Source of the DNA: Thermoanaerobaculia bacterium
GTDB taxonomy: Bacteria; Acidobacteriota; Thermoanaerobaculia; Gp7-AA8
Length of the DNA stretch: 64,000 nucleotides
Direction of reading: 5' to 3'
NCBI GenBank assembly: GCA_035525285.1
Contig: DATLFB010000033.1
Coordinates: 4,365-68,364, forward strand
In this document: positions 896-52,812 of the stretch, in pieces
Position numbering within the stretch: position 1 is the first letter of the stretch
How the letters are laid out: the number at the start of each line of letters is the position of its first letter
Translations under genes and position numbers: made by a program
Notes under the pieces: model-generated
The model's input: only the letters and a program-made list of their open reading frames with translations
What the model was told of the DNA's origin: nothing
The model's database searches: none

Positions 896-1020
896 GGGGG
901 CAATGGGGGGCGGGGCCGGGGTTGCCCGGTTTCCCGGTTGCCCGGTGAGTGGATGCTCGTTCATCGCGTGCGCCTCGTCCACCGGGTAACCGGGCTACCG
1001 GGAAACCGGGCAACCGTTGT
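896..1020. repeat. Palindromic element, family I (GGTTGCCCGGTTTCCCGGT...ACCGGGAAACCGGGCAACC)
   Basis: Inverted-repeat arms built from CCCGGTT/AACCGGG units, between a divergent gene pair. The same element recurs at 2878, 9210, 26805, 38868 and 52718. Confidence 0.8.
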
Positions 1021-2467: not shown

Positions 2468-2471
2468 GTCG

Positions 2472-2553
2472 GAATTGAGAATTGAAAATTGAAAATTGAA
2501 AAAACCGGAGAGTCGCTTTCATTTTTCAATTTTCAATTTTCAATTTTCAATTT
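2472..2553. repeat. Heptamer-tandem hairpin, family A: (AAATTGA)x4 - loop - (TCAATTT)x4
   Basis: gaattgagaattgaaaattgaaaattgaaaa...tttttcaattttcaattttcaattttcaattt. Sits in the gap between pgm and the ferredoxin gene. Likely an intrinsic-terminator-like hairpin. Confidence 0.85.
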
Positions 2554-2559
2554 GCACTC

Positions 2560-2877
2560 ATGAAATATCCCTTCGAAAAGCACTTCGTCATCTGCATCGG
2601 AAAGGACTGCAACCGTCTCGACCGCGGCATCGAGCGTGGCGCGTGCATCCAGGAAGAGCTGAAGGCGCACAACAAAGAGATCGGCCGGAAGCCGGCGATC
2701 CGCGTCTGCACGGTTTCGTGTCTCGACCTCTGCGACTACGGGCCGAACATGATCGTGTATCCCGAGGGGACCGTGTACGGACATCTGACCCGCGAGCTCG
2801 CGCGTAAGGTGTATGACGGGGAGACGGGGGATGGGCCGAAGCGGCCGGATCTGGAGTTGGAGTTGCCGAAGACCTAG
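2560..2877 (+). CDS. Thioredoxin-like [2Fe-2S] ferredoxin
   Basis: 105 aa; Cys pattern ICIGKDC ... CTVSCLDLCDYGP typical of the thioredoxin-like 2Fe-2S ferredoxin / NuoE-like fold. Confidence 0.65.
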   Translation: MKYPFEKHFVICIGKDCNRLDRGIERGACIQEELKAHNKEIGRKPAIRVCTVSCLDLCDYGPNMIVYPEGTVYGHLTRELARKVYDGETGDGPKRPDLELELPKT

Positions 2878-2950
2878 GTTGCCCGGTTACCCGGTTGCCC
2901 AGTTGCCCGGTGGGGTTCACTGGGAAACCGAGTGACCGGGCAACCGGGCA
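2878..2950. repeat. Palindromic element, family I
   Basis: ttgcccggttacccggttgcccagttgcccggtg...cactgggaaaccgagtgaccgggcaaccgggcaacc. Confidence 0.8.
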
Positions 2951-2998
2951 ACCCCATCGTGTACACTCCCCCGCAATCTGAAACGAAGAGGCCCCCGC

Positions 2999-4177: not shown

Positions 4178-5101
4178 TTACTCGAAGAGCGTGTCCACGT
4201 AGGTCTGCGGATCGAACGGGATCAGGTCATCCGCCCCCTCGCCCACCCCGACGAACTTCACCGGGATGTCGAACTGGCGCATGATCGAGAGGATCACGCC
4301 GCCTTTCGCGGTGCCGTCGAGCTTCGTGACGATCATGCCCGTCACCTTCGCCGCTTCGAGAAACGCGGCGGCCTGACTGACGCCGTTCTGGCCGGTCGTG
4401 CCGTCGAGCACGAGCAGCGTCTCGTGCGGCGCGCCGGGGAGCTCTTTGTCGATCACGCGATGGATCTTCGAAAGCTCCTGCATCAGATGCGATTTGTTGT
4501 GCAGGCGGCCGGCGGTGTCGATGAGCACGACGTCGGCATTGCGCGACTTCGCGGCGGAGACGGAGTCGTGCGCGACGGCAGCAGGATCCGAGCCGGCCTT
4601 GTGCTTCACGAGCGGTACGCCGATGCGATCTGCCCACATCTGCAGCTGCTCGATCGCGGCGGCGCGGAAGGTGTCGGCGGCGCCGAGGATCACGCTCTTC
4701 CCTTCGCTCTTCCAGCGTGAGGCGAGTTTGGCGATCGTCGTCGTCTTCCCGGTGCCGTTCACGCCGACGACGAGGATCACGAACGGCTTCGCGCGCGAGA
4801 GGTCGATCGTCTGCGCCGTGCGCTGCGGGATGAGCGCGCGCGTCTCGTGGCGGATCACTTCCGTGAGCCGCTCCATCTTCGTGATCTTCTCGTCGCGCAC
4901 GCGCTGCTCGACGCGCTCGACGAGCGAGGCCGTGAGCTCCGCGCCGACGTCGGCGCCGAGCAGGCCTTCCTCGAGGCCATCGATCGCGGATTGATCGATC
5001 GGAAGGTCGGGAGTCATCGACTCCTTCACCTTGTCGATGATCTCGGTGTGGGTCATGAAGAGCCCACGTTTGAGTTTGTCGAAGAGTGATTTTTCAGCCA
5101 T
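4178..5101 (-). CDS. ftsY: Signal recognition particle receptor FtsY
   Basis: LVVGVNGTGKTTTIAKLA...DTAGRLHNK...TKLDGTAKGG (SRP GTPase G1-G5 motifs). Confidence 0.9.
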   Translation of the reverse strand: MAEKSLFDKLKRGLFMTHTEIIDKVKESMTPDLPIDQSAIDGLEEGLLGADVGAELTASLVERVEQRVRDEKITKMERLTEVIRHETRALIPQRTAQTIDLSRAKPFVILVVGVNGTGKTTTIAKLASRWKSEGKSVILGAADTFRAAAIEQLQMWADRIGVPLVKHKAGSDPAAVAHDSVSAAKSRNADVVLIDTAGRLHNKSHLMQELSKIHRVIDKELPGAPHETLLVLDGTTGQNGVSQAAAFLEAAKVTGMIVTKLDGTAKGGVILSIMRQFDIPVKFVGVGEGADDLIPFDPQTYVDTLFE

Positions 5102-5111
5102 GCCTGTCTCG

Positions 5112-5210
5112 AGCGATGAGCGATGAACGATGAACGATGAACGATGAACGATGAACGATGAATCAGATCATCGATCATCGTTCATCGTTCATCGTTCATC
5201 GTTCATCGTT
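5112..5210. repeat. Heptamer-tandem hairpin, family D: (GATGAAC/CGATGAA)x5 - loop - (TTCATCG)x4
   Basis: gagcgatgaacgatgaacgatgaacgatgaacgatgaatcagatcatcgatcatcgttcatcgttcatcgttcatcgttcatcg. Confidence 0.85.
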
Positions 5211-6273: not shown

Positions 6274-6299
6274 GCGCGGCGCGAATCGTAGCCGGACGG

Positions 6300-6430
6300 A
6301 GGGTAAAAGGTAAAAGGTAAAAGGTAGCCGGGGGAGGGTAAAAGGTAAAAGGTAAAAGGTAAAAGTGGCTCCGCCATTCGGCGCGCTTGCCGTTTTGCCT
6401 TTTACCTTTTTCCTTTTTCCTTTTACCTCT
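6300..6430. repeat. Heptamer-tandem hairpin, family B: (GGTAAAA)x3 + (GGTAAAA)x4 - loop - (TTTTNCC)x5
   Basis: gggtaaaaggtaaaaggtaaaaggtagccgggggagggtaaaaggtaaaaggtaaaaggtaaaag...ttttgccttttacctttttcctttttccttttacc. Confidence 0.85.
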
Positions 6431-8019: not shown

Positions 8020-10845
8020 TTGACCCGCTCCCCCGCCGCCGTCCTCATCGCCCCCTACCGCGAGATTGCCGCCGCCGTCGCCGCCCGTCTCGCCGCCGCG
8101 CGCGAGGGCTCCGATCCGCTCGACGCGTGGGCCGAAGAGGTGATCGTACCGTCGCGGGGGATGGCGGAGGCAATCTCGAATGAGTTGCTCGTGCGGACGC
8201 CGCGCGGCGTCGCGGGGGTGCAGATCCGCTTTCTGGACGAGCTCGCGCGCGCTCTCGTGAACGATGCGGGCGCGTTTCCGCGCGCAGCGTCGGATGCGGA
8301 GCGCCGGCTGGCGATGCGGATGGCGGTGCGCACGGTGCAGCATCCGATGATGGAGGGCCGCGGCGTGGCGGCGATGCTCGAGCGCTCGTATCGTGATCTG
8401 CGCGACAGCGGTCTCACGCTCGACGGCCTCTCCACGCGCGGCCTGCGCAATCCGCAGCGCACGCAGGCGATCCTCCGCGCATTCGCGGAGTACGAGCGCC
8501 TCATCGCACAGCTCGGCGCGATCGATCCCGCGGATCTCCTCGCGCAGGCGGAGCGCGTCGCGGAACACGCTCGTCCGCAACTGCTCGCCGGCTTCTACGA
8601 CATGACCGGCGCGCAAATGCGCTTCGTTCAGTCGCTGATGCCCCGTATCGCCGCAGTCTGGATTCCCACTGACATGCCGTTCGCCCAGCCGTTCATCGAA
8701 CGTAGCGGCGGGCTTCAGCCCGCCGGAAGCCGGCCGGCTGAAGCCGGCCGCTACGTTTCAGATGCAATGTCCTACGACACGAATCACGCCGAGCTGCGCG
8801 AGGTGTGCGCGCACGTCGCGGAGCTGCTGGAAGGGGGCGAGCAAAGCATCGCCATCACCGCTCGTTCCCTCGACCCCTACGCCATCCATCTCCTCAACCG
8901 CTTCGCCGCCGAGCACGGCTTCGCGACGACGCTGCCCGACGAAATCCCGCTCGCGGCCCATCGCATCGGCCGCGGCGTGCTGACGCTGCTCCGTCTGCGC
9001 GATCGCGGCTTTCCGCGAGGCGAGGTGCTGGAACTGGTGCGCGACGGCCTGCTCGCGCGCACGCGCATCGACGTCGATCGCGCGGACTACGAGACGCGCC
9101 GCGCGCACATCGCCGGCGGCACGAGCGAGGAGCTGGCGCCGCTGCGCAATCGTTCGCGCGCGCTCGACGAGTACATCGCGCTGGTGGCCGAGCTGGAGGA
9201 GTTGACCTCAGGGCTGCCCAGCTACCCGGCTGCCCGGCTACCCAGCACTTCGCCGGGAAGCCGGGAAGCCGGGAAGCCGGGGAGCCCACCGGAGCTCAGC
9301 AGTCTGTTTCGTGTCGAGACCGAGCTCGATCTCGTCGCGGCGGCGAGGCTCGACGAGATCGCGGCGCTGTTCCGGCGGACCGGACAGGCGGGATCGCCTG
9401 TCCTCCACGACCTCATCGACGCGATCGAGCAGGTGTCGCTGACGCAACCGCCGAGCGCGGGACCGAAGGTGTGGGCGGGCGATGTGATGCGCTTTCGCGG
9501 GCGCTCGTTCGCGCACGTGTTCGTCGTGCGGATGCAGGACGATGTGTTCCCGCAGCGGCGCACCGAGGATCCGCTGTTTCCCGATTCCGACCGCCGCGTC
9601 CTCGGGATGCGCGAGATCGGCGACGGGCGGGCGGAGGAGGAGCTGCTGCTGCAGCTCGTGCGCGAGTCCGCGGCGCACGTGCACTTCTCGTTCGCAAGCG
9701 GCGACGGGTTCGGCAAGGTGCTGCGGCCGTCACGGTATCTCCGCGGGCTTGACGTAGCGACCGACTTCAGCCGGTCGAAGGGCGGGCTGAAGCCCGCCCC
9801 TACGTTGTTGCGTCCCCTACAACTGCTCGTGAGGTCGGGAACGCGGTCCGTGTTCGACAGCTACCTCCCGATGCTTGCGGAGACCTTCCGCGCGCGCGTG
9901 CAGTCGGTGACGCCGACGCAGCTCGAGGACTTCGGCGAGTGTCCGCAGAAGTTTTTCTTCAAGCATCTCCTCGGCGTGCAGGAAGTCGAGCATCCCGAGC
10001 GCGAGCTGCAGATCCATCATCGCGAGAAGGGCTCGATCGATCACAAAATCCTCGAGCGCTTCTATCGCGCGCTGTCGTCCGCCGAGCTCGCGAACGCCGC
10101 GGCCGCGCTGCCGCGACTCCCCGACGCGCTCGCCGCGCGGCTCGACACGATCATCGACGAGACCTTCGACGAGCACGAGCAGCAGTTCCCGCCGTTCAAC
10201 CGCACGGTGCGCGGGATCGAGCGGCGCGCGACGAAGCGCATCCTCCGCGAGTTCCTCGCGGGCGACATCGCGGAGCTCACCGCCAGCGAGCTCGAGCCGC
10301 GCCACTTCGAGTACCGCTTCGGCGTCTCGCGCCGCGGCGCGTCGGATCATCCGGAGCCGTTCATCGTCCACGCGGGCGGCGTGCCGGTGCGCGTCGAGGG
10401 GACGATCGATCGCATCGACTACGGCGGGGCCGGCCTGCGCATCGTCGACTACAAGTCGGGAAAAGCAATCCGGCACAACTATCTGCCCGAGAAGATCGAT
10501 CGCGGCGTGCGGCTGCAGCTCGCGCTGTATGCGATGGCCGCCGCGGAGTTCTTCGACAACGCCAACGTCAGCGGCACGATCAAGCCGATCGTGACGGGCG
10601 AGCAGAAATTCAAGTTCGCGTTCGTGCTCGAGGAAAAGCGCGCGACGCTGCTCGAGACGCTCGAGATCTTCCTGCGCGCGATCACCGGCGGCATCTTCCC
10701 CGCGTTCCCGAACGACGAAGACTTCAACTCCTGCAAGTACTGTCCGGTGAGCCACTCGTGCCGCACGCGGCACGATCAGGAGGAGCGCTACGCCGTGCAG
10801 CAGCACCGCGATCCGCGCACGCTCCTCGGCGGAGGCGCGCCGTGA
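8020..10845 (+). CDS. AddB-like PD-(D/E)XK nuclease subunit of a two-subunit helicase-nuclease
   Basis: 941 aa. C-terminal nuclease motif IDRIDYGG..RIVDYKSGKA and Cys staple FGECPQKFF...DFNSCKYCPVSHSC (AddB-type Fe-S). Carries three in-frame palindromic elements (8700-8756, 9210-9290, 9757-9810). Confidence 0.7.
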   Translation: MTRSPAAVLIAPYREIAAAVAARLAAAREGSDPLDAWAEEVIVPSRGMAEAISNELLVRTPRGVAGVQIRFLDELARALVNDAGAFPRAASDAERRLAMRMAVRTVQHPMMEGRGVAAMLERSYRDLRDSGLTLDGLSTRGLRNPQRTQAILRAFAEYERLIAQLGAIDPADLLAQAERVAEHARPQLLAGFYDMTGAQMRFVQSLMPRIAAVWIPTDMPFAQPFIERSGGLQPAGSRPAEAGRYVSDAMSYDTNHAELREVCAHVAELLEGGEQSIAITARSLDPYAIHLLNRFAAEHGFATTLPDEIPLAAHRIGRGVLTLLRLRDRGFPRGEVLELVRDGLLARTRIDVDRADYETRRAHIAGGTSEELAPLRNRSRALDEYIALVAELEELTSGLPSYPAARLPSTSPGSREAGKPGSPPELSSLFRVETELDLVAAARLDEIAALFRRTGQAGSPVLHDLIDAIEQVSLTQPPSAGPKVWAGDVMRFRGRSFAHVFVVRMQDDVFPQRRTEDPLFPDSDRRVLGMREIGDGRAEEELLLQLVRESAAHVHFSFASGDGFGKVLRPSRYLRGLDVATDFSRSKGGLKPAPTLLRPLQLLVRSGTRSVFDSYLPMLAETFRARVQSVTPTQLEDFGECPQKFFFKHLLGVQEVEHPERELQIHHREKGSIDHKILERFYRALSSAELANAAAALPRLPDALAARLDTIIDETFDEHEQQFPPFNRTVRGIERRATKRILREFLAGDIAELTASELEPRHFEYRFGVSRRGASDHPEPFIVHAGGVPVRVEGTIDRIDYGGAGLRIVDYKSGKAIRHNYLPEKIDRGVRLQLALYAMAAAEFFDNANVSGTIKPIVTGEQKFKFAFVLEEKRATLLETLEIFLRAITGGIFPAFPNDEDFNSCKYCPVSHSCRTRHDQEERYAVQQHRDPRTLLGGGAP
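8700..8756. repeat. Palindrome family J (CGTAGCGGCGGGCTTCAGCCCGCCG...CGGCCGGCTGAAGCCGGCCGCTACG), intragenic and in-frame
   Basis: Perfect inverted repeat inside the addB-like CDS (encodes RSGGLQPAGSRPAEAGRY). Copies at 9757 and 54664. Confidence 0.8.
9210..9290. repeat. Family I-like element inside the addB-like CDS, in-frame
   Basis: ctgcccagctacccggctgcccggctacccagcacttcgccgggaagccgggaagccgggaagccgggg encodes LPSYPAARLPSTSPGSREAGKPGSPP. Confidence 0.7.
9757..9810. repeat. Palindrome family J, intragenic
   Basis: gcgaccgacttcagccggtcgaagggcgggctgaagcccgcccctacg within the addB-like CDS. Confidence 0.7.
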
Positions 10846-13800
10846 TGCAGAAGGCATTCGAGTGGGGGACCGGCAAACCTGCCGGTCCGGACAGGCGAGA
10901 TCGCCTGTCCTCCACCTCGCGTCGCAACGTCGTCATCGAAGCGGGCGCGGGAACGGGAAAGACGACGGCGATCGTGGCCGAGGTGCTGAAGCTGATGCTC
11001 GAGCGCGCGGAGCTCGCGCCGGAGCGCATCGTGCTGATGACGTTCACGGAGAAGGCCGCGGGCGAGATCGCGGATCGGATCCGGACAGCGCTCGAGGAGC
11101 TCTCCCAGTCTCCGGCTCTCACCTGGCCCATCGACTCCGCGCATCCCCTCCTCACGATCGACGACCCCGACTCCGCGCGCCGCGCGATCGCGCATCATCT
11201 CGCCAACATCGACGCGCTGCGCTCGCAGACGATCCACTCGTTCTGCCAGTCGCTGCTGCGCACCTTCCCGATCGAGGCGGGGCTCGATCCGCAGTTCAAG
11301 ATCATCGAAGGCTTCGAGCGCTCGCTGCTCTACGGGCAGCTGTACGACGCGTGGATCGATCAGGAGACGCGCGTCCATCCGACGGAGGAGGGAGTGCGCG
11401 AGTGGGAGCTGCTCTTCGCGCACGCCGGCTATCTCTTCCAGATCCGCGATCTGATCCTCGGCATGATCGATCGCCGCGATCTGCTCGAGGAGACGGGCTA
11501 CGACTTCGGCACGCTCGAAGAAGTCGAAGAGAAGCTGATCGATGCACTCGTCGCGATCCGCCGCTGCGGCGATACGGTGGGCGACGAGCAGGCGCAGCGA
11601 ATCTTCGCGTACGTCCGCGAGACCGATCCGCCGGCGCCCGGCGACATCGATCGCTGGCTCGAGTATCTCCATCCGATCGCCGCTTCGATCCGCGATGCGA
11701 ATCTGCCGCGCCACGGAATCCTCAAGGAGGCGCTGAAGATCCTGCGCGGCAAGGAGTCGAAGGGGCGCTCGGTCTACGACTATCTCGTGCGCCACCGTGC
11801 GGCAATCGCGCTGCTCGCGCTGACGCGGCGTTTCCTCGCCTACCTCGACGAGGAAAAGCGCCGCCTCGGCGTCGTCGACTTCGACGATCTGCTGCTCCGC
11901 ACGCTCGCGCTGCTCGACGACGCGGGCGTGCTGGCCCGCGCGCGCGCGCAGTTCGATTTCATCTTCGTCGACGAGTTTCAGGACACCGACCGCACGCAGG
12001 CGCGAATCATCGACCGCCTCGCGCGCGACGCGTCGGGCACATACGTCGCGGGCAAGACGATCGTGGTCGGCGATCCGAAACAGTCGATCTACGGATTCCG
12101 CCGCGCCGATCCGGAGACGTATTACCGGATGACGGAAGGTCTCGTGGCCGGCGGAGCGGAGCGGCGCGTGATCGCGGATCAGTACCGCAGCGATCCGCCG
12201 CTGCTCGACGCCGTGAACGCGCTCTTCGCACGGCTTTTCCCCGACACGCTGCAACACGACCCGAACGTGTTCCGCCCGCGTTACACGCCGCTGCGCGCGG
12301 CGCGCGAGTCGTCGCGCCGCGAGCTCGATGCGCGGATCACGCTGCTGCACGCGCAGCACGACGACGCGGCGGATAAGTTCATCGTCGAGGCGGAGGCGAT
12401 CGCGAAGTGGATCAAGGCGCGCGCGGAAGGCGATCTGCGGCGCTTCGCGATCCTCTTCCGGCGCCTGACGAAGCTCGACGATTATCTCGACACGTTCGAT
12501 CGCCACGGCATCGACTACGTGCTCCCGCCGACGCGCATGTTTCTCGACCGCCGCGCGCCGGTCGATCTGCTGGCGGTACTGCGAGCGATCGCCTACCCGT
12601 TCGATCACGGCGCGCAGATCTCGGCGGCAAGGACGCCGTACTTTGCGCTGACGGATGAGGAGATCGCGGAAGGGGTGCTGCGTGCTGCGTGCAGCGTGCA
12701 GGAGGGCGACGTGACGCAGCACGCAGCACGCAGCACGCAGCACCCGTGGACGGCATTCGTCGCCGCCATCGCCCGCTTCCGCGACCACGCCCGCCATCTC
12801 ACCGCCTCCCAGCTCATCGACCTCGTCATCACCACGACCGGCATCGAGCGCGTGTACGACGCCGCGGCGGACGGCGTGCGCCATCTGCGGCATCTCGAGC
12901 ACGTGCGCGCGATCGCGTTCGAGTACGACCAGCGCACGGGCGGATCGGTCGGACAATTCGTCGGGGAGATCTCGCAGCGGCGCGGCGAGCCGGACGAGAT
13001 CGAGCCGAGCCTGATCGACGAGTCGAAGAACGCGGTGCGGATCATGTCCGTGCACGCGGCAAAGGGGCTCGAGTTCGAGACGGTCATCCTCCCCGACCTC
13101 GCCGTGCAGCCGCCGTCGAACGACACGCAACTCTTCACCGTCGAGGAGCCGCGCAGCCTCGTGCTCGCGGGGCGCGTGGAGTCGATCTCGGCGAACTTCC
13201 GCTTCGCGAACGGCGAGAAACTGAAGCGCATCAACGCGCGGCGCGAGGAGGCGGAGACGCGGCGGCTGTTCTACGTCGGCGTCACGCGCGCGAAGACGGA
13301 CGTCGTGTTCGTCTGCAATCTCGCCGAGGAGACGAAGAACGTTGGATTCCTGCGCTGCCTGTGCGAGGGGCTGGGGATCGAGAAGAACGCGCTCACGGGA
13401 ATGTTCGTCGATGGACGCACGGTCCATGCGACAGAGATTGGGGATGTTGCGTTCGAGCGGGTGTGGAGTGCGGCAACGCCAGTTGCCGCTGTCGTAGGAA
13501 AGCGGCGACTGGCGTCGCCGCACTCCACACTCGAAGCGGAGCTCGCGACAGGCGGGATCGTCCCGTGCGAGATCGCCGCGCCCTCCCCTGTCACCGCGCG
13601 TCTCGCGACGAGCGAAGTGGCCGCGCGCCGCGCCGGCTCCCGCAATCGCGCGGCGGGCATCCTCCTGCATCGCGTCCTCGAGCGCTGGGACGGACGTGCC
13701 GATACCGAGCCGCTGCTGAAGCAGCTCGCGGTCGAGACCGCGGCGGAGGAGGAGGCGGTCGCGCGCGTACGCCGGCGGCTGGCCACGGTCGCGCGCTCCG

Positions 13801-14102
13801 CGACCCTGCAGCGCATCGCGAGCGCGGAGACGATCGGCCGCGAGGTGCCGGTGCGTTTCGTCGAGGAAGGCGCACTCGTCGAGCGCCGCATCGATCGCCT
13901 GCTGCGCGAGAACGGCGCGGAGCTCGTCGTCGACTACAAGAGCGGCGCGGCCGAGGAGTCGCGCGTCGCGAAAGACCGCGAGCACGTCGAGCGGTACTGC
14001 CGCGCGATCTCCGGCATCACCGGCCGCCCGTGCAGCGGGCTCCTCTGGTACGTCGATGTGGAGAACGACGTCGTCGTGGAGGTGCTGCGTGCTGCGTGCT
14101 GA
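10845..14102 (+). CDS. AddA-like ATP-dependent helicase-nuclease (UvrD-type helicase with C-terminal PD-(D/E)XK nuclease)
   Basis: Start ATG overlaps the addB stop (TGATG). VVIEAGAGTGKTTAIV (Walker A)...FIFVDEFQDTD...VVGDPKQSIYGFRRAD...C-terminal ELVVDYKSG nuclease motif. The ORF-track start at 9939 is an antisense-style extension. Confidence 0.8.
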   Translation: MQKAFEWGTGKPAGPDRRDRLSSTSRRNVVIEAGAGTGKTTAIVAEVLKLMLERAELAPERIVLMTFTEKAAGEIADRIRTALEELSQSPALTWPIDSAHPLLTIDDPDSARRAIAHHLANIDALRSQTIHSFCQSLLRTFPIEAGLDPQFKIIEGFERSLLYGQLYDAWIDQETRVHPTEEGVREWELLFAHAGYLFQIRDLILGMIDRRDLLEETGYDFGTLEEVEEKLIDALVAIRRCGDTVGDEQAQRIFAYVRETDPPAPGDIDRWLEYLHPIAASIRDANLPRHGILKEALKILRGKESKGRSVYDYLVRHRAAIALLALTRRFLAYLDEEKRRLGVVDFDDLLLRTLALLDDAGVLARARAQFDFIFVDEFQDTDRTQARIIDRLARDASGTYVAGKTIVVGDPKQSIYGFRRADPETYYRMTEGLVAGGAERRVIADQYRSDPPLLDAVNALFARLFPDTLQHDPNVFRPRYTPLRAARESSRRELDARITLLHAQHDDAADKFIVEAEAIAKWIKARAEGDLRRFAILFRRLTKLDDYLDTFDRHGIDYVLPPTRMFLDRRAPVDLLAVLRAIAYPFDHGAQISAARTPYFALTDEEIAEGVLRAACSVQEGDVTQHAARSTQHPWTAFVAAIARFRDHARHLTASQLIDLVITTTGIERVYDAAADGVRHLRHLEHVRAIAFEYDQRTGGSVGQFVGEISQRRGEPDEIEPSLIDESKNAVRIMSVHAAKGLEFETVILPDLAVQPPSNDTQLFTVEEPRSLVLAGRVESISANFRFANGEKLKRINARREEAETRRLFYVGVTRAKTDVVFVCNLAEETKNVGFLRCLCEGLGIEKNALTGMFVDGRTVHATEIGDVAFERVWSAATPVAAVVGKRRLASPHSTLEAELATGGIVPCEIAAPSPVTARLATSEVAARRAGSRNRAAGILLHRVLERWDGRADTEPLLKQLAVETAAEEEAVARVRRRLATVARSATLQRIASAETIGREVPVRFVEEGALVERRIDRLLRENGAELVVDYKSGAAEESRVAKDREHVERYCRAISGITGRPCSGLLWYVDVENDVVVEVLRAAC
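12683..12742. repeat. Heptamer-tandem hairpin, family F: (GTGCTGC)x3 - loop - (CAGCACG)x4, inside the addA-like CDS and in-frame
   Basis: gtgctgcgtgctgcgtgcagcgtgcaggagggcgacgtgacgcagcacgcagcacgcagcacgcagcac encodes VLRAACSVQEGDVTQHAARSTQH. Confidence 0.8.
13448..13540. repeat. Unique palindromic hairpin inside the addA-like CDS
   Basis: gtggagtgcggcaacgccagttgccg...cggcgactggcgtcgccgcactccac (in-frame: VWSAATPVAAVVGKRRLASPHST). Confidence 0.6.
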
Positions 14103-14140
14103 GTGCTACGCGGCACGCGGCACGCGGCACGCAGCACTAC
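14085..14140. repeat. Heptamer-tandem hairpin, family F (GTGCTGC / GCACGCG arms)
   Basis: gtgctgcgtgctgcgtgctgagtgctacgcggcacgcggcacgcggcacgcagcac. Overlaps the addA stop, between addA and marC. Confidence 0.8.
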
Positions 14141-16105: not shown

Positions 16106-16458
16106 ACGCGCGTGGCCTCGTAGGTTCGCTCGTTGCGGACGTTGCCGGTGTTGAGCGTGCTCGCCGGCTCGAAGAGCAGCACGTGCGCCTCCTCGGCCGC
16201 GACCGGCCGATGCTCCACGCCGCGCGGGACGATGAAGAATTCGCCCTCGCCGAGGGGGATGTCGGCGTCGCGAAGCTGAATCGTCATCGCGCCTTTGAGC
16301 ACGAGAAAGAGCTCGTCTTCATGCTCGTGGTGATGCCACACGAACTCGCCCTGCAGCTTGACGACTTTGACGTGCTGGCCATTCAACTCGCCGACGACGC
16401 GCGGCTGCCACTGCTCGGTGAAGGAGGCGAGCTTTTCGGTGAGAGAGACTTTTTCCAT
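16102..16458 (-). CDS. Cupin domain protein
   Basis: ...VWHHHEHEDELFLVLKG...GEFFIVPRGVEHRP (cupin motifs G(X)5HXH(X)3-4E... and G(X)5PXG(X)2H). Confidence 0.7.
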   Translation of the reverse strand: MEKVSLTEKLASFTEQWQPRVVGELNGQHVKVVKLQGEFVWHHHEHEDELFLVLKGAMTIQLRDADIPLGEGEFFIVPRGVEHRPVAAEEAHVLLFEPASTLNTGNVRNERTYEATRV

Positions 16459-16504
16459 CGGAGAAGCGTACCGCGGAGCGGGCCATCCTGTACGCTAAGA
16501 CCGG

Positions 16505-16831: not shown

Positions 16832-16894
16832 GATCGGTTAGTGAGACGCCGCGCTTTCGGCGACGTTCTCGGCTCGTCGCGTTCGACTGCGACA

Positions 16895-20322: not shown

Positions 20323-21002
20323 GAAACACTCCTCTCACGCAGCAGGCGCTCGATCTTGCGGAGGACACGCAGCGACTCGGCGTGCGGCATGAGCGCGGCC
20401 GCCGGGTCGAGCGCGACCCAGGCGAGCTCGTTCGACTCGCCGCGGTCGATGGTGATGGCATCGGGGCTCGACGTGCGTGCGAGATATCGCACGTCGAAGT
20501 GATCGTGGTCCGGCTCATGGCGCGCCGCGGGGATTTTGTGGATGTCGAGATCGAAGATGGCCGTGGCGCTGGCGCGGATTGAGGATTGAGGATTGAGGAT
20601 GGCGCTGGCGCGGATTGAGGATTGAGGATTGAGGATAGCGCTGGCGCGGATTGAGGATTGAGGATTGAGGATTGAGGAAGGAGGGAGCAGCTCGAGATCG
20701 GTGAGGCCCGACTCCTCGGCGCCCTCGCGGAGCGCGGCGGCATCGGGCGTTTCATCGCCTTCGACGTGCCCGCCCATCTGCAGCCAGCGATCGAGGCGGC
20801 GGTGATGATGGAGGAGCAGGCGGCCGCCGTCATCGATGATGAAGCAGCTCGCGGTGACGTGTCCCGGCGCGAAGTGCGCGCGCGAGAAGGGCTCGGCGGC
20901 GTCGCGCACGAGATCGAGCATCGCATGGCGATGCCCCGCCTCGAGCTCGTCGGCGGGCTCGTAGGCTCGGAGCTCTTCGAATAGTCGCGCGGCGCGGGAC
21001 AT
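20319..21002 (-). CDS. NUDIX hydrolase with an internal 3 x 13-aa tandem repeat
   Basis: Start at MSRAARLFEEL (ATG 21002). Nudix box GGHVEGDETPDAAALREGAEESGL. The ORF-track extension to 22256 is antisense to the kinase gene. Confidence 0.8.
   Translation of the reverse strand: MSRAARLFEELRAYEPADELEAGHRHAMLDLVRDAAEPFSRAHFAPGHVTASCFIIDDGGRLLLHHHRRLDRWLQMGGHVEGDETPDAAALREGAEESGLTDLELLPPSSILNPQSSIRASAILNPQSSIRASAILNPQSSIRASATAIFDLDIHKIPAARHEPDHDHFDVRYLARTSSPDAITIDRGESNELAWVALDPAAALMPHAESLRVLRKIERLLRERSVS
20571..20690. repeat. Direct tandem repeat, 3 x 39 bp (ggcgctggcgcggattgaggattgaggattgaggat), inside the NUDIX CDS
   Basis: In-frame. Encodes (ILNPQSSIRASA)x3 between the Nudix box and the C-terminal region. 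The unit itself contains (GATTGAG)x3. Confidence 0.85.
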
Positions 21003-25677: not shown

Positions 25678-25775
25678 GAGTTGAGAAAATTGAAAATTGA
25701 AAATTGAAAATTGAAAAAAGAGCGAACGGGCCCGTGCTGCGGCCTCCTTTTTCAATTTTCAATTTTCAATTTCAC
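25678..25775. repeat. Heptamer-tandem hairpin, family A (AAATTGA)x4 ... (TCAATTT)x3
   Basis: gagaaaattgaaaattgaaaattgaaaattgaaaaaagagcgaacgggcccgtgctgcggcctcctttttcaattttcaattttcaatttcac. Between coxB and ctaA inside the operon. Confidence 0.85.
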
Positions 25776-26804: not shown

Positions 26805-26935
26805 TCGATGGTTACCCGGCTGCCCGGTTGCCCGGCGGCGCAGTGCGGGTGCCTGCGCCTTTGCGTGATGTGGCGCCGCCCCCCGGACGGCGCCGCCGGG
26901 AAACCGGGAAACCGGGAAACCGCCCCCCGTCACGG
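26805..26935. repeat. Palindromic element, family I (longest copy)
   Basis: ggttacccggctgcccggttgcccgg...ccgggaaaccgggaaaccgggaaaccgcc, between two small ORFs of the oxidase operon. Confidence 0.8.
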
Positions 26936-34463: not shown

Positions 34464-34487
34464 TCTGCGGTAGCCTCACGGGTGGTG

Positions 34488-34593
34488 ATAAAGGCAGAAG
34501 GCAGAAGGCAGAAGGCAGAAGTGAGAACCGTGACACGGCGCGTGACGCGTGCCTTTCTTACTTCTGCCTTCTGCCTTCTGCCTTCTGCCTTCA
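34488..34593. repeat. Heptamer-tandem hairpin, family C: (GAAGGCA)x4 - loop - (TGCCTTC)x4
   Basis: aaaggcagaaggcagaaggcagaaggcagaagtgagaaccgtgacacggcgcgtgacgcgtgcctttcttacttctgccttctgccttctgccttca. Confidence 0.85.
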
Positions 34594-36618: not shown

Positions 36619-36643
36619 CCAGCCCCCAACGAGTTGTCACGAA

Positions 36644-36726
36644 GCTCTTAGCTCTTAGCTGTTAGCTCTTAGGACATCGCCGTCGCCGGCCTTTCCTAAG
36701 AGCTAAGAGCTAAGAGCTAAGAGCTC
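36644..36726. repeat. Heptamer-tandem hairpin, family E: (GCTCTTA)x4 - loop - (TAAGAGC)x4
   Basis: aagctcttagctcttagctgttagctcttaggacatcgccgtcgccggcctttcctaagagctaagagctaagagctaagagctc. Confidence 0.85.
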
Positions 36727-37318: not shown

Positions 37319-37349
37319 CTATCGGTGAAAACGGGAAGGTAGTCAAGCC

Positions 37350-37436
37350 GAACGATGAACGATGAACGATGAGCGATGAACGATGGTTCAACGCTCTGTT
37401 TCATCGCTCATCGTTCATCGTTCATCGTTCATCGTT
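37350..37436. repeat. Heptamer-tandem hairpin, family D (GATGAAC)
   Basis: gaacgatgaacgatgaacgatgagcgatgaacgatggttcaacgctctgtttcatcgctcatcgttcatcgttcatcgttcatcg. Confidence 0.85.
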
Positions 37437-38262: not shown

Positions 38263-38268
38263 GCGTTG

Positions 38269-38348
38269 GAATTGAAAATTGAAAATTGAAAATTGAAAAA
38301 CACGGAAGCACGATCCTTTTTCAATTTTCAATTTTCAATTTTCAATTT
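38269..38348. repeat. Heptamer-tandem hairpin, family A (AAATTGA)
   Basis: ggaattgaaaattgaaaattgaaaattgaaaaacacggaagcacgatcctttttcaattttcaattttcaattttcaattt. Confidence 0.85.
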
Positions 38349-38358
38349 GCCTCCGCAC

Positions 38359-38867: not shown

Positions 38868-38962
38868 GAATTGCGGTTGCCCGGTTGCCCTGTTTCCCGG
38901 TTGCCCGGTGCTGTGGGTGGGCGGGACCGGGAAACCGGGCAACTGGGAAACCGGGCAACCCT
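38868..38962. repeat. Palindromic element, family I
   Basis: gcggttgcccggttgccctgtttcccggttgcccggtg...gggaccgggaaaccgggcaactgggaaaccgggcaacc. Confidence 0.8.
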
Positions 38963-39344
38963 AAACCGACAACAACTCCGAAATCGTCTTGATCAGATGC
39001 GAGCTCTGAATCGGCTTCGAGATGTACGCATTCGCCCCCAGCGCCAGCCCGCGCTCCCGATCCTCTTCCGCACCTTCGGTGGTGATGATGATGATCGGGA
39101 TGCTCCTGAGCTGGGCGTTCTGGCGGACGAGCGAGACGAGCTTGAGTCCGTCCATGACCGGCATGTTGATGTCGGTGAGGATCAGGTCGATCTTGTCCGG
39201 ACCGGAGAGTTTCTTGAGCGCGTCGACGCCGTCGACCGCTTCGATGATCTTCGCGTTCTTGAATCGCTTCAGCGAAAACGAGATCAGTTGTCGCATGGTC
39301 GGCGAGTCTTCGACGACCAGAAAGTTCGCGTTCTCCATCCCCAC
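38961..39344 (-). CDS. CheY-like single-domain response regulator
   Basis: ...NFLVVEDSPTMRQL...LILTDINMPVMDGL...GANAYISKPI. Confidence 0.8.
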   Translation of the reverse strand: MGMENANFLVVEDSPTMRQLISFSLKRFKNAKIIEAVDGVDALKKLSGPDKIDLILTDINMPVMDGLKLVSLVRQNAQLRSIPIIIITTEGAEEDRERGLALGANAYISKPIQSSHLIKTISELLSV

Positions 39345-42266: not shown

Positions 42267-42278
42267 AGAACAAAGCCA

Positions 42279-42367
42279 GCGATGAACGATGAACGATGAC
42301 GATGAACGATGAACGGCCGCCACGCCTGCTCATCGTTCATCGTTCATCGATCATCGTTCATCGTTCG
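42279..42367. repeat. Heptamer-tandem hairpin, family D (GATGAAC)
   Basis: gatgaacgatgaacgatgacgatgaacgatgaacggccgccacgcctgctcatcgttcatcgttcatcgatcatcgttcatcgttcg. Confidence 0.85.
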
Positions 42368-44595
42368 GTCCCACTCTTCTCTCGCATTGCCGCCAGAATC
42401 GCGGCAATCACCACCTCGCGCCGGCTGTCCGCCGTCCGCCACGCCTCTTCCAGCTGGTCGCGATACAGCTCCTTGTGTCGAACGAAGGTTTCCGAGACAT
42501 CGTCGAGAATGGCCGCGTTCTCGAGCGCTTTGAACAGAAACGGGAACGACGAGGGGTCGGCGACTTTGTCGAGCGCCTGCACCGCGGACTGCTGCACGTA
42601 CGTATCGGGATCGTCGAGCGCGCGGTGCAGCGCGGAGAGCGCGGTGCGGTCGCCGCGCACGCCGAGGGCGGTCGCCGCGGCGGCACGGATGCGCCAGTCG
42701 TCGTGCGAGAGCGCCGCGAGGAGGCGATCGAATACGTCGCGGCCCGGAATGCGCGCGAGCGCGAGCATCGCCGCGCGCTGGATCTCCGGATCGGCCTCGT
42801 CGAGACACTGGAAGAGCACGTCTTTCACGCTCGCGTTTTCCGACTTGCCGAGCGCTTCGATGACCGCGATGCGCACCGGCGGCGGGTCGTGCGTGAGATG
42901 GCGCATCAGCGGCTCGATCGAATCGGGATGGCGATACTCGCCGAGCGCCTGCGCGGCCGCGGTGCGGATCCAGATGTCGTTGTCGTCGAGTGAGCTGATC
43001 AGCGGCTCGAGCCCGGTCTCCGGACGCAACCGCACGATCGCGTTGATCGCCGCGAGCCGCACCGAGGTCGCTTCATCGGCGAGCGAGAGCACCAGCTGAT
43101 CGGCGAAGCGTTCTTCGCCGAACTTGCCCATGAGCGAGACCGCTTTCTGCCGGATCGTCGGATCGCTGTCCTTCGACGCGAGCAGCAGCTCGTCGTGATA
43201 GCCCTCGCCCTGAATGTTCACGAAAACCGAGAGAGAGTTGAGCTTGATCGGGACCGAGGAGGACTGAAGGAGCCTGCGGATTTTCGTCATCACCTCGCCC
43301 TCGAACTCCGGGAAGGCGGTGACGAGCGCGGAGATCGAGTTGACCGCGGCCTGCTGCGAGGCGACGTCGTAGTCGTCGAGCTTCGCGAGGAGATAGTCGA
43401 TCGACGCGGGATCCGGAATCTCGCCGATGGTCTCGATGGCCAGGCGCCGGATCATCGGATTGTCGTGATCGAGGAAGGGCAGGATGCTCGGGATGCTCTC
43501 CCGGCCGCCGACGACATTCACGACGCGCAGGAGCAGTCCGACGATCTCGTCCTCCTCGGCGTTGCGCAGCGCCTCGAGAATGCTCGGCACGGCGGCGGCA
43601 CCGAAGTCGATGAGCGCTTGCGCGACGATCTCGGCGGTGTCGGGATGTTCGAGATACGCGATCAGGACCGGCAGCGCGCTCGCGTCCGAGGACCAGCCGA
43701 GAAACTTGAGGATGAACGCCTTCACCTCGCGCTTCGGCGTGCTGTGCAGATGCTCGACGAGCGGGACGATCTTTTCGCGCGGGAACGACTCGCGGAAGCG
43801 GTTCTGGATCAGTTGCCGCTCCGCCTGTTCGACGATGCGCGGCTTGCTCGCCTCGGCGATGCGCACGAGTGCGCGCAGCGCGGTGAGGTTGAGCTTTTCT
43901 TCGTCGGCGATGACTCGCAGCAGGAAGTTGACCGTGCCGACGTCGGCGATCTTGCCGATCGCCTCGAGCACCGGCTTGCGCAGCGACTTCTCCGCGAAGA
44001 GCGGAAGGATCGCGGGGAGCGCGGCGCGGTCGCCGATCTCGCCGACCGCTTCGATGACGTGAAACTTCAGCCAGAGATCCTCACGCTCGTGAAGGACGCG
44101 CATGAGATGCGGCAGCGCAGCGGCGTCGCGATATTTTCCGAGCGAAGAGACGACCGAGGAGGCGACGTTGATGTCGTGGTCCTTTGCCAGCAATTCGAGG
44201 AGGATGTCGAATCCGTCGCGGCTGCGGAGATCGCCGAGGAGATTGACCAGCGAGAGGCGGACGTCGACGTCCTGCTCGCGCCGCAGCCGCGCGACGATCG
44301 GCTCGATCGCCGGCGTCCCGATGCGCATCAGCGCCTCGGTCGAGGAGTTGCGCTTGCCGGCGTTCTCCGCGTCGGAGAGCGCGTCGAGGAGGCCATCGAC
44401 GATCTCCGGCCGCGCGTCACGCACGAGCCCGTCGACGATGGTCTTGCGCACGCGCCAGTCCTTGTCGCCGAGGAGCTCGAACATGAGCGGCAGATTGCGG
44501 TCGTCCGCCGAATGGGCGACGAGGTAGGCCGCTTTCTGGCGCGCGTCGGGGTCGGACGAGCGCGCTTGTTCGATGATTTGAGGGTCGGCTGTCAT
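42358..44595 (-). CDS. Large HEAT-repeat (PBS-lyase-like) protein, ~745 aa
   Basis: Around 20 tandem HEAT-like units (e.g. ...DALSDAENAGKRNSSTEALMRIG..., ...LISSLDDNDIWIRTAAAQALGEY...). Start at MTADPQ (ATG 44595), outside hairpin F. Confidence 0.7.
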   Translation of the reverse strand: MTADPQIIEQARSSDPDARQKAAYLVAHSADDRNLPLMFELLGDKDWRVRKTIVDGLVRDARPEIVDGLLDALSDAENAGKRNSSTEALMRIGTPAIEPIVARLRREQDVDVRLSLVNLLGDLRSRDGFDILLELLAKDHDINVASSVVSSLGKYRDAAALPHLMRVLHEREDLWLKFHVIEAVGEIGDRAALPAILPLFAEKSLRKPVLEAIGKIADVGTVNFLLRVIADEEKLNLTALRALVRIAEASKPRIVEQAERQLIQNRFRESFPREKIVPLVEHLHSTPKREVKAFILKFLGWSSDASALPVLIAYLEHPDTAEIVAQALIDFGAAAVPSILEALRNAEEDEIVGLLLRVVNVVGGRESIPSILPFLDHDNPMIRRLAIETIGEIPDPASIDYLLAKLDDYDVASQQAAVNSISALVTAFPEFEGEVMTKIRRLLQSSSVPIKLNSLSVFVNIQGEGYHDELLLASKDSDPTIRQKAVSLMGKFGEERFADQLVLSLADEATSVRLAAINAIVRLRPETGLEPLISSLDDNDIWIRTAAAQALGEYRHPDSIEPLMRHLTHDPPPVRIAVIEALGKSENASVKDVLFQCLDEADPEIQRAAMLALARIPGRDVFDRLLAALSHDDWRIRAAAATALGVRGDRTALSALHRALDDPDTYVQQSAVQALDKVADPSSFPFLFKALENAAILDDVSETFVRHKELYRDQLEEAWRTADSRREVVIAAILAAMREKSGTER

Positions 44596-44597
44596 AC

Positions 44598-44672
44598 GTG
44601 CCACGTGCTGCGTGCTGGGTGCTGCGTGCCGCCGCTGCCTTTACGCAGCACGCAGCACGTAGCACGCAGCAC
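44598..44672. repeat. Heptamer-tandem hairpin, family F (GTGCTGC)
   Basis: gtgccacgtgctgcgtgctgggtgctgcgtgccgccgctgcctttacgcagcacgcagcacgtagcacgcagcac. Confidence 0.85.
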
Positions 44673-47094: not shown

Positions 47095-47180
47095 GAAGGC
47101 AGAAGGCAGAAGGCAGAAGGCAGAACTGAGAAGTTCCACGTTTCTGCCTTCTGCCTTCTGCCTTCTGCCTTCTGCCTTCA
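47095..47180. repeat. Heptamer-tandem hairpin, family C (GAAGGCA)
   Basis: tgaaggcagaaggcagaaggcagaaggcagaactgagaagttccacgtttctgccttctgccttctgccttctgccttca. Confidence 0.85.
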
Positions 47181-51675: not shown

Positions 51676-51694
51676 CGCGGCACGCGTGTCCGGC

Positions 51695-51788
51695 GAAGGC
51701 AGAAGGCAGAAGGCAGAAGGCAGAAGTGAGAAAACGACGTGGCGTTGTTTCTTCCTTCTGCCTTCTGCCTTCTGCCTTCTGCCTTCAT
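51695..51788. repeat. Heptamer-tandem hairpin, family C (GAAGGCA)
   Basis: gaaggcagaaggcagaaggcagaaggcagaagtgagaaaacgacgtggcgttgtttcttccttctgccttctgccttctgccttctgccttca. Confidence 0.85.
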
Positions 51789-52699: not shown

Positions 52700-52717
52700 T
52701 CGGGGCGGATTATAGGT

Positions 52718-52812
52718 TGCCCGGTTGCCCGGTTTCCCAGTTGCCCGGTGTCAAGGCGCCGGCACCCGCACGGCGCCACCGGGCGACCGGGAAGCCGGGA
52801 AACCGTTCATCG
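52718..52812. repeat. Palindromic element, family I
   Basis: ggttgcccggttgcccggtttcccagttgcccggtg...caccgggcgaccgggaagccgggaaaccg. Confidence 0.8.

Follow-up and report, generated by a model that had tools for sequence, protein, structure and literature searches.

The window analysed here, a 64,000-nucleotide (nt) stretch of a Thermoanaerobaculia bacterium (Acidobacteriota; assembly GCA_035525285.1, contig DATLFB010000033.1, positions 4,365 to 68,364 of the forward strand), carries gene pairs such as coxB and ctaA, cytochrome b and Rieske, HEAT and CheR, CheA and an ATPase, and NusB and a DUF4388 protein, and each of these pairs is parted by a hairpin of one unusual design. We identified 20 such hairpins in the window, each consisting of tandem copies of a short unit, a loop, and then copies of the reverse complement of that unit. 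Tandem Repeats Finder listed paired arrays at all the coordinates given in a preliminary description of this DNA, and the six 7-mer families named there proved to be real: AATTGAA (2469, 25685 and 38270), GGTAAAA (6300), GAAGGCA (34491, 47095 and 51692), CGATGAA (5111, 37347 and 42278), AGCTCTT (36640) and GTGCTGC (12673, 14082 and 44596). That description had overlooked an unpaired array within a gene and a further family, the 8-mer GGTTGCCC/GGGCAACC, which is present in six copies (920, 2877, 9212, 26810, 38874 and 52715) with the partner arms ACCGGGCA/ACCGGGAA, bringing the window to at least seven unit families. Several of its figures also had to be changed. The arms contain 4-7 units rather than 3-5, and loop lengths, given there as 15-35 nt, extend from 0-3 nt up to over 30 nt. 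The hairpins were said to fill almost every gap between genes, and we found them at about 18 of the roughly 58 junctions, with none between 53 and 64 kb. Nor are they all intergenic, since the hairpins at 9212 and 12673 and the unpaired array at 20564 lie in frame within genes. The GC content of the window is about 65%, not 68%.

A purpose-built detector, which reports a tandem array of period 5-12 followed after a loop of at most 120 nt by a reverse-complement array, found 14-15 hairpins in the window at strict settings and none in 30 third-order Markov shuffles. All 20 elements were predicted to fold as long hairpins, with energies from -36 to -84 kcal/mol and z scores from -4.7 to -13.7, and for each of them 0/200 shuffles folded as well as the native sequence. 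The element at 2469-2553, which was flagged first, formed a hairpin of at least 32 bp (-36.8 kcal/mol, z = -8.5, equalled by 0/200 shuffles). In the predicted folds of the 8-mer family, pairing proceeded as 7-bp helices with a regular 1x1 mismatch between them; the copies at 26810 and 9212 had exact 7-bp helices and a 1x1 mismatch at every unit. A possible reading of the 8-nt class is thus a pairing unit of 7 bp with one additional position that stays unpaired. No part of the window matched an Rfam 15 family at the gathering score, and a tRNA scan of the window found nothing.

The hairpins are abundant throughout one clade of soil Thermoanaerobaculia. Searches with CheR yielded 80 loci from reference genomes and 80 more from metagenomes, and the close loci in the former set all came from uncultured soil Acidobacteriota of the class Thermoanaerobaculia, at 75-89% identity. 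Among 161 sequences (2.24 Mb), 98 contained hairpins of this design, 208 in all, built from dozens of distinct units, while some relatives had none in 20 kb. Their period was 7 in 191/208 cases and 8 in 17/208, and never 5, 6 or 9-12. At least 84% of the period-7/8 arrays sat in inverted pairs. The same detector found no hairpins in the outgroup loci from Holophagales and Nitrospiraceae, and a scan of viral contigs for three of the families gave no matches, so there is no sign of carriage by phages. A scan of metagenomes for strain-level relatives of the window found none closer than about 90% CheR identity; a recent insertion in this particular genome could therefore not be caught, and close pairs among the other loci were used instead. 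The literature that we searched held no description of such elements in Acidobacteria or Thermoanaerobaculia.

Repeats and palindromes are prone to mis-assembly and the related sequences are mostly short-read metagenome-assembled genomes (MAGs), which raises the question of an artefact of assembly or synthesis; the preliminary description also named the possibility that the structures are confined to this window. Besides the 208 hairpins in relatives, identical hairpins were shared by assemblies made independently from different samples and matching each other at 99.9% identity or more (L025/L108, L003/L084 and L156/L157), and others were found in long-read chromosomes (L029, OY970284.1; L042, OY970380.1), indicating that the hairpins are not assembly artefacts. 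Moreover, the copies within genes leave the reading frame open, and the placement of the elements relative to stop and start codons is constant. We consider the chance of an artefact to be negligible.

The anatomy of the elements separates what is shared between copies from what is not. Each arm typically had 4-6 units (means 4.9 and 5.0), with a correlation of r = 0.23 between the two arms, and the loop had a median of 15 nt (10-90% range 3-58 nt). Within a family the loops were unrelated in sequence and length, from 0 to more than 100 nt. The polarity of a family, units first, then loop, then reverse-complement units, was constant across species (9/9, 8/8, 8/8, 8/8, 5/5 etc.; one family was mixed), and the 5′ arm was usually the purine-rich, stop-containing one. 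Purines prevailed in the 5′ arm of 80 elements and pyrimidines in that of 31. In each family the outer ends kept a constant phase, for example AAATTG...CAATTT or AACGATG...CATCGTT, with family-specific termini such as AAATTG, AACGATG, GAAGGCAG and GGTTGCCC. We found nothing consistent with a target-site duplication, as the longest word common to the 12-nt flanks was 3.16 compared with a null of 2.98 +/- 0.08. The view that elements sharing an architecture with unrelated units do not fit the whole-element copy-and-paste of repetitive extragenic palindromic (REP) sequences is thus borne out by the unrelated loops and by the flanks.

Many units were one or two substitutions apart (GAAGGCA, GAATGCA, GAACGCA, GAATGTT) and occurred mixed within single arrays. 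The order of variant units was weakly mirrored between the arms (0.66 vs 0.74 mismatches per unit, p = 3e-4), indicating that the arms are not simple mirror copies of each other. Over the co-directional gaps as a whole, stem length was bimodal: one peak, of the size that chance would give, lay at 3-8 bp and the other at 24-32 bp, with a trough at 15-20 bp between them. An element is therefore either missing or of a typical size, about four heptamers, with a stem of about 28-35 bp. At one locus (L031), the junction orthologous to 38262-38359 of the window had arms of a 14-nt composite unit, GAATGAAGAGGTTC, in which two heptamers alternate.

We then considered where the elements lie relative to genes. 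Of 1666 co-directional gaps, 184 were occupied (11.0%), compared with 6 of 102 convergent gaps (5.9%) and 2 of 87 divergent gaps (2.3%), with an odds ratio of 5.3 between co-directional and divergent gaps (p = 0.006); in the window, one copy, the 8-mer hairpin at 920-1016, lies in a divergent gap. Relative to where the upstream stop codon ends, the median start of the elements was -1 nt (interquartile range -5 to +4), and a median of 10.5 nt separated their ends from the following predicted start, in agreement with the earlier remark that the hairpins overrun stop codons and inflate the calls of open reading frames (ORFs). Among elements whose unit contains a stop codon in a single orientation, 80 have that orientation as the 5′ arm and 13 as the 3′ arm. 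A period of 7 is not divisible by 3, so that successive copies of the stop in such an arm close every reading frame within 21 nt. Survival is almost confined to places where a fold-back insertion does little harm: in co-directional junctions, the stretch that begins at the upstream stop codon and leaves about 10 nt to the following start, and in proteins, permissive loops in which the frame is kept.

Occupancy differed strongly between junctions (chi-square 120, p = 2e-18). The HEAT-CheR junction was occupied in 39/141 relatives by 17 unit families and the ferredoxin-HEAT junction in 28/67 relatives by 11 unit families, while three tightly coupled junctions were never occupied (0/85, 0/54 and 0/59). 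Other GC-rich palindromes, which have no tandem arrays, were seen at the same junctions (L039, L064 and L069 at HEAT-CheR; L009 and L016). Non-array palindromes were also seen in frame in the AddA homologues P0028, P0029, P0046, P0072 and P0079, where they encode peptides such as HPPAAPSPLTRGEG. Since such palindromes share both the junctions and AddA with the array hairpins, the permissive sites are common to more than one class of repeat. A second hotspot of structural variation lies right after the CheR stop, where genomes with about 94% identity differ by indels of 0.5-1 kb (L123/L124, L135/L136 and L114/L117).

Comparison of orthologous gaps, which the preliminary description had proposed as a check, revealed the presence/absence variation that it looked for, without target-site duplications. 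Depending on the species, the HEAT-CheR junction, for instance, had no more than a spacer of about 10-15 nt, a short hairpin of simple type, or a complete array hairpin. At orthologous sites of different genomes, 11% of pairs had identical units and 49% had units within two substitutions, compared with a background between genomes of 2.2% and 19%, respectively. This graded similarity indicates descent at a fixed site with the unit changing in concert. At non-orthologous sites of a single genome, 16.2% of pairs had identical units and the others were unrelated, and this all-or-none identity indicates that the exact arm sequence spreads within a genome. Each genome thus draws on a few exact units for several unrelated junctions, and the arm sequence is copied from one locus to another or taken from a common source. 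Between genomes that are about 94% identical, whole elements were swapped for unrelated ones, including a 7-mer for an 8-mer. Even where orthologous elements shared the unit, the loops were mostly unalignable (59/66 pairs), and in two orthologous pairs, L027/L121 and L094/L095, one loop was the exact reverse complement of the other, indicating arm-to-arm recombination at the DNA level. Later change in place therefore comprises gain and loss of units by slippage, substitutions that spread along the arrays, recombination between arms that flips the loop, loss, and replacement.

These data bear directly on a purely local origin, in which a short palindrome or heptamer already present at a junction expands by 7-nt polymerase slippage and the second arm is formed or corrected by intrastrand template switching, without any movement between loci. 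Such a process would account for the unrelated loops, for the lack of target-site duplications and for orthologous units that are one or two substitutions apart. One-unit hairpins were found at 'empty' orthologous sites, as in L031, where AAGGATGA-gtag-TCATCCTT stands in place of the array of L057. In four species, the AddA hotspot has units that start at the native codons for G-V-L or M-L, the C-terminal sequence GCGATGAA of the HEAT gene resembles the unit CGATGAA, and 7 nt has been proposed as a preferred slippage length (Mrazek 2007, as cited in PMC4679880). However, the own unit of an element matched the empty orthologous sites no better than unrelated units did (1.95 vs 1.88 +/- 0.06), so local seeding is not general, and the bimodal stem length shows no continuum of growth. 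Exact units recur at unrelated sites of one genome (16% vs 2%) and across species with fixed polarity and terminal phase, and unrelated units, even a 7-mer and an 8-mer, interchange at one site between closely similar genomes. These observations argue against the suggestion of the preliminary description that each hairpin is built in place, and a purely local origin seems to us distinctly unlikely.

The same description had offered strong selection for a structural element as the other possibility. If the hairpins punctuated operons at the RNA level, a long stem between cistrons would be useful while the sequence of the unit was free to drift, and the stem could act as an RNase III site, a stabiliser of 3′ ends, a terminator or attenuator independent of U-tracts, or a device for translational coupling. 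RNase III needs a stem of roughly 20-22 bp, and the characteristic stem of about 28 bp exceeds this. The strictly post-stop position in co-directional junctions, the depletion in divergent gaps, the repeated occupancy of the HEAT-CheR and ferredoxin-HEAT junctions by different units and the maintenance of complementarity between arms while the unit changes are all consistent with such a role, as is the finding that the comparable repeats of Xanthomonas are mostly transcribed (PMC4692102).

Nevertheless, the tests for an RNA role gave no sign of one. For 105 co-directional hairpins (window and L001-L080), the stability of the sense and antisense folds did not differ (p = 0.44). G-U pairs numbered 155 in the sense and 242 in the antisense orientation, so that the bias of G-U over A-C pairs expected on the sense strand was absent and the trend was reversed. 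An antisense surplus is the opposite of what RNA selection would produce and may reflect a strand-specific mutation bias. Between 34 and 53 kb of the window, 12 terminator-like sites were found compared with 11.9 expected; none of them was a full array hairpin, and U-tracts were absent. In addition, copies stand in frame in AddA, AddB and NUDIX domains, where a processing site or terminator would do harm, in many close relatives nothing but 0-15 nt of spacer is present at the junction concerned, and the 8-mer family carries regular mismatches. The in-gene copies and the many empty junctions disfavour a required RNA role, and such a role would leave the tandem-repeat arms, the fixed polarity and the exact sharing of units within a genome without explanation. 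A generic effect of a 28-35-bp RNA stem, such as cleavage by RNase III, protection of 3′ ends or translational coupling, may exist, and the sequence record requires none. We therefore rate selection for an RNA structure as unlikely, while regarding it as the most serious of the alternatives.

Three features in the window interrupt genes while preserving the frame: the hairpin at 9212-9286 in an AddB-like nuclease, the hairpin at 12673-12743 in the UvrD_C domain of AddA, and the array at 20564-20684 in a NUDIX gene. An alignment of 120 homologues showed that the AddA insert of the window lies in a hypervariable hotspot, where some homologues are bare and others have different inserts. At the DNA level, this hotspot carried in-frame heptamer hairpins in four species (L161-L164), of the GTGCTGC, GGTGCTG, GAGTCCT/GCTGAGT and GTTGCG types. 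The GGATTGA array at 20564-20684 has no inverted partner, indicating a tandem duplication of a heptamer array within coding sequence. Intragenic REPs are likewise often found in replication and repair genes (Di Nocera et al., PMC3733652). Genes for an ATP-dependent DNA ligase and a LigD primase-polymerase were seen in relatives a few kb from AddAB (L161 13141-15643, L162 13032-15534). Their presence suggests non-homologous end joining in the clade, which bears on the repair of broken palindromes.

Taken together, we favour, with somewhat better than even confidence, the reading that the elements are a lineage-wide population of palindromic microsatellite repeats acting at the DNA level ('SSR-palindromes', for simple sequence repeats), which are tolerated only where the insertion of a fold-back sequence is harmless. 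New copies would come from a copying step that moves arm sequence and leaves neither a target duplication nor a conserved loop. Candidates for this step are a hairpin-specific single-strand transposition of the HUH type, similar to that of the REP-associated tyrosine transposases (RAYT), followed by rapid scrambling of the loop, as well as recombination or template switching between arrays, and templated addition of repeats. Under copying of the HUH type, the non-conserved loops would require that the tip of the hairpin be scrambled rapidly. Purifying selection, rather than a regulatory role, would then set the location of the elements. The stop-containing 5′ arm, by closing three frames, would limit read-through, and a perfect palindrome would loop out of the mRNA and keep the stop and the next start close to each other. 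Transcribed hairpins of 28-35 bp may incidentally affect the processing or stability of the mRNA.

Several points weigh against this reading. No copying enzyme or master copy was found in the sequences covered, and a tblastn search for IS200/IS605-like genes with an approximate IS608 TnpA query gave nothing below E = 0.39, which is a weak test, as the 2.3 Mb searched represent less than 1% of each genome. The loops of copies within one genome have nothing in common, and a simple transposon would keep its loops, at least in recent copies. The lack of target-site duplications fits transposition of the HUH type and is equally predicted by a non-mobile origin. The fixed polarity and the quantum of 7 nt have no mechanistic account, and the resemblance of the AddA and HEAT-CheR units to adjacent native codons hints at local seeding. 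Junctions that are filled in 28-42% of species by many units could reflect selection for a hairpin rather than permissiveness. Finally, all the data come from MAGs of uncultured organisms, mostly assembled from short reads.

Fixed polarity together with unrelated loops is what would be expected from templated repeat writing, in which an enzyme similar to a reverse transcriptase or telomerase, or a primase-polymerase, extends both 3′ ends of a break and end joining seals them. Each unit family would correspond to one template, and the product would be units, filler and reverse-complement units. This scheme would also account for the 4-6 units per arm, the weak correlation between arms and the weak mirroring of variants, as well as for the recurrence of units at many sites without target-site duplication and for repeated events at fragile sites; LigD ligase and Prim-Pol genes are present in the clade. 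On the other hand, we know of no bacterial precedent for it, and neither a candidate enzyme nor a template was found. The graded similarity at orthologous sites and the arrays of mixed units fit later drift equally well, and the idea is entirely inferential. We judge templated writing in this form to be improbable.

A broader proposal is that some dedicated activity writes repeats of 7-8 nt symmetrically about a site, with the unit family as the allele of a template, either by templated extension of 3′ ends with end joining or through a hairpin-specific enzyme that copies the arms and not the loop. The GGGAATC pairs of Xanthomonas, and perhaps the heptamer repeats of other bacteria, would then come from the same kind of process. 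This proposal is speculative, and we think that it is probably wrong, if not quite as improbable as the specific scheme of templated writing.

The closest precedent for the hairpins is the set of inverted GGGAATC heptamer pairs in Xanthomonas. The genomes of X. campestris and X. axonopodis each contain about 70-75 convergent pairs (Rehm et al. 2015, PMC4692102). Arrays of four units are the commonest, and most pairs lie between ORFs of like orientation, close to the stop of the first, and few between divergent ORFs (PMC4692102). The elements described here share the head-to-tail heptamer arms (period 7 in 191/208, 4-6 units), the two nearby convergent arrays that can form a stem-loop or cruciform (at least 84% paired, with fixed polarity), the preference for co-oriented gaps near the upstream stop (11.0% vs 2.3% of divergent gaps), and the variation of length and sequence between related species. 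They differ from the single G-rich unit of Xanthomonas (GGGNATC) in having at least seven families per genome and dozens per clade, mostly not G-rich, in including an 8-nt class, and in belonging to the phylum Acidobacteriota. Many arrays are unpaired in Xanthomonas, in contrast to at least 84% paired here, and turnover of units at orthologous sites, inversion of loops and in-frame copies within genes are not described there.

The Xanthomonas pairs were read as G-quadruplex formers, with no function established (PMC4692102), and the preference for about four units was taken there as a requirement of the quadruplex. A sequence-specific motif, whether a G-quadruplex former (proposed for Xanthomonas and Nostoc) or a set of iterated protein-binding sites, would suit arrays that are periodic like iterons. 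However, the units here are dozens of unrelated sequences, most of them without G-tracts (AATTGAA, CGATGAA, GGTAAAA, AGCTCTT), and a single junction tolerates up to 17 of them, which misfits a specific binding protein. As the non-G-rich units keep the same preference for 4-5 units, the G-quadruplex is not the cause of it here, and the explanation given for Xanthomonas is not general. We consider a sequence-specific motif very improbable.

Further similarities link the hairpins with the REP sequences, bacterial interspersed mosaic elements (BIMEs) and REPINs that depend on RAYT, which are also short extragenic palindromes in many copies and several families per genome. These lie after stop codons in co-directional or convergent gaps and occasionally inside genes, often those of replication and repair (PMC3733652). 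They likewise lack target-site duplications, as expected for HUH/Y1 enzymes, and are inherited vertically as persistent families. Unlike a REP, which is a single imperfect palindrome of 20-40 nt with a conserved GTAG or CGTC head, the hairpins have arms that are tandem arrays and termini that are family-specific; unlike REPINs, in which the spacers are homologous within a family, they have unrelated loops. The weak tblastn search described above gave no sign of a RAYT gene.

A dominant period of 7 nt is shared with the short tandemly repeated repetitive (STRR) sequences of cyanobacteria, the TAACTGA repeats of Beggiatoaceae, Cyanobacteria and Bacteroidetes, and the long simple sequence repeats (LSSRs) of Mrazek 2007. 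In many bacteria the long simple repeats are mostly heptamers, for which slippage over about 7 nt was proposed (Mrazek 2007, as cited in PMC4679880). Repeats of this kind are also intergenic, often adjoin start codons and have a patchy phylogenetic spread. They differ from the elements here in being direct arrays of one or a few units per genome, with no obligatory inverted partner; the BOGUAY genome, for example, has 169 direct sets and a single indirect one.

The Rickettsia palindromic elements (RPEs) resemble our in-gene copies in that they are palindromic repeats within ORFs that keep the frame and add a peptide, with the same protein site struck in different lineages. In RPEs, 100-150 bp are conserved over the full length and the arms are not microsatellites, whereas only the arm unit is common to the copies here, and only 2-3 of 21 copies lie within genes. 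Miniature inverted-repeat transposable elements were rejected because there is no consistent target-site duplication. A stable hairpin directly 3′ of a stop codon recalls Rho-independent terminators, which have a short GC-rich stem, a loop of 3-8 nt and then a U-tract. These were rejected in view of the missing U-tract, the stems of 28-35 bp and loops of up to 60 nt, both well beyond canonical sizes, and the lack of an excess of terminator sites; the hairpins also differ in that they stand within operons and leave about 10 nt to the following start codon. The attC sites of integrons share an architecture without a shared sequence and follow ORFs. They were set aside on reading the sequence, as the flanks are syntenic housekeeping operons and the termini are family-specific and not attC core sites.

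The elements of the window are collected in Table 1. The GGTAAAA element at 6288-6428 is a higher-order duplication of half an element. Elsewhere in the window, the stretch at about 16400-19300, between Cupin-like genes and a PNPOx gene, had a GC content of 0.60-0.62 and no GC3-type coding signal, and its ORFs had no Pfam match except a weak one to DUF4145; it may be a foreign or degenerate island.

Table 1. Repeat elements of the window, with predicted folds (z, score against shuffles) and flanking or host genes (coordinates and strand in brackets)
Position	Strand	Element	Fold	Genomic context
920..1016	.	8-mer hairpin, GGTTGCCC/GGTTTCCC x3.4, 34-nt loop, ACCGGGNA x4.5	-69.2 kcal/mol, z -7.5	divergent gap, RR-GGDEF gene (3-866, -) / phosphoglucomutase (1061-2467, +)
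2469..2553	.	element flagged first, (AATTGAA)x4.5, 14-nt loop (2503-2516), (TTTCAAT)x5.3	z -8.5	phosphoglucomutase stop (2467) / 2Fe-2S ferredoxin-like gene start (2560)
2877..2953	.	8-mer hairpin, GGTTGCCC family	z -6.8	ferredoxin-like gene stop (2877) / PagL-like gene (2999)
5111..5210	.	(CGATGAA)x7, 3-nt loop, (TCATCGT)x6	-70.9 kcal/mol, z -11.7	AAA ATPase (5203-6231, -) / FtsY (4178-5101, -); upstream stop overlapped
6288..6428	.	GGTAAAA hairpin with 35-bp duplication; two 5′ arms (6300-6326, 6335-6365), single 3′ arm (6391-6428)	z -4.7	
9212..9286	.	8-mer hairpin, GGCTGCCC / GCCGGGAA, 75 nt	-63.9 kcal/mol, z -7.5	in frame within AddB-like nuclease gene (8020-10845, +)
12673..12743	.	(GTGCTGC)x4, 12-nt loop, (ACGCAGC)x4.3	folds as hairpin	in frame, UvrD_C domain of AddA-like helicase-nuclease (10842-14102, +)
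14082..14137	.	(GTGCTGC)x3.7 abutting (ACGCGGC)x4.3, no gap	z -7.8	includes AddA stop codon (14100-14102); 13 nt from MarC start (14151)
20564..20684	-	unpaired array, [(GGATTGA)x3 + 15 nt] x3, 36-nt super-period; encodes SSILNPQSSIRA x3		in frame in NUDIX gene (20319-21005, -), NUDIX domain split
25685..25772	.	(GAAAATT)x4.7, 27-nt loop, (TTTTCAA)x4	z -6.6	coxB (25783-26553, -) / ctaA (24685-25659, -)
26810..26922	.	8-mer hairpin, GGTTNCCC x3.2, 60-nt loop, CCGGGAAA x3.4	-84.2 kcal/mol, z -6.8	upstream of coxB
34487..34592	.	(GAAGGCA)x5, 33-nt loop, (TTCTGCC)x5.4	-81.7 kcal/mol, z -13.7	cytochrome b C-terminal-like (34591-35814, -) / multihaem cytochrome c (31098-34463, -)
36638..36725	.	(AGCTCTT)x5, 23-nt loop, (CTAAGAG)x4.3	z -9.6	Rieske (36725-37270, -) / cytochrome b (35836-36618, -)
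37345..37436	.	(GAACGAT)x5.5, ~12-nt loop, (TTCATCG)x5.5	z -10.5	HEAT-repeat gene (37429-38262, -; stop within arm) / Rieske
38266..38348	.	(AATTGAA)x4.5, 14-nt loop, (TTTTCAA)x5		4Fe-4S ferredoxin (38359-38832, -) / HEAT gene
38874..38968	.	8-mer hairpin, CGGTTGCC x4.5 / ACCGGGAA x4.4	z -5.2	response regulator (38961-39344, -) / ferredoxin
42278..42366	.	(CGATGAA)x5.3, 12-nt loop, (TCATCGT)x5.3	z -10.4	HEAT protein (42358-44595, -; stop within arm) / CheR (41415-42266, -)
44591..44672	.	(CGTGCTG)x5, ~10-nt loop, (ACGCAGC)x4.3	z -4.7	receiver-domain gene (44675-45535, -) / HEAT gene
47095..47179	.	(GAAGGCA)x4.4, 16-nt loop, (TTCTGCC)x5.4	-68.3 kcal/mol, z -10.9	CheA (47181-49232, -) / AAA_22 ATPase (46273-47085, -)
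51692..51786	.	(GAAGGCA)x5, ~20-nt loop, (TTCTGCC)x5.4	-75.4 kcal/mol, z -12.6	NusB (51785-52204, -) / DUF4388 receiver protein (49810-51675, -)
52715..52805	.	8-mer hairpin, GGTTGCCC x4.4 / ACCGGGAA x3.5	z -5.4	N-acetylmuramoyl-L-alanine amidase (52807-54699, -) / lumazine synthase (52205-52699, -)

That the long simple repeats of many bacteria are predominantly heptanucleotides has been known since 2007, and the sole detailed study of inverted pairs is that of Xanthomonas. The clade studied here is a natural experiment on the same theme, as it combines an architecture, a placement and a preference for 4-5 units similar to those of Xanthomonas with dozens of mostly non-G-rich units, indicating that the blueprint is independent of sequence. 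The dynamics are unusual, with fixed polarity, shared units around non-conserved loops, up to 17 families at one junction, flipping of loops and in-frame copies in DNA-repair genes. In practical terms, the hairpins break short-read assemblies, inflate ORF calls and shift the annotation of starts and stops in a large group of soil bacteria that are abundant and uncultured. Hairpins that served as RNase III or stability sites would show how operons are punctuated in these bacteria, and a dedicated mechanism of copying or writing, if it exists, would represent a new kind of bacterial repeat biogenesis.

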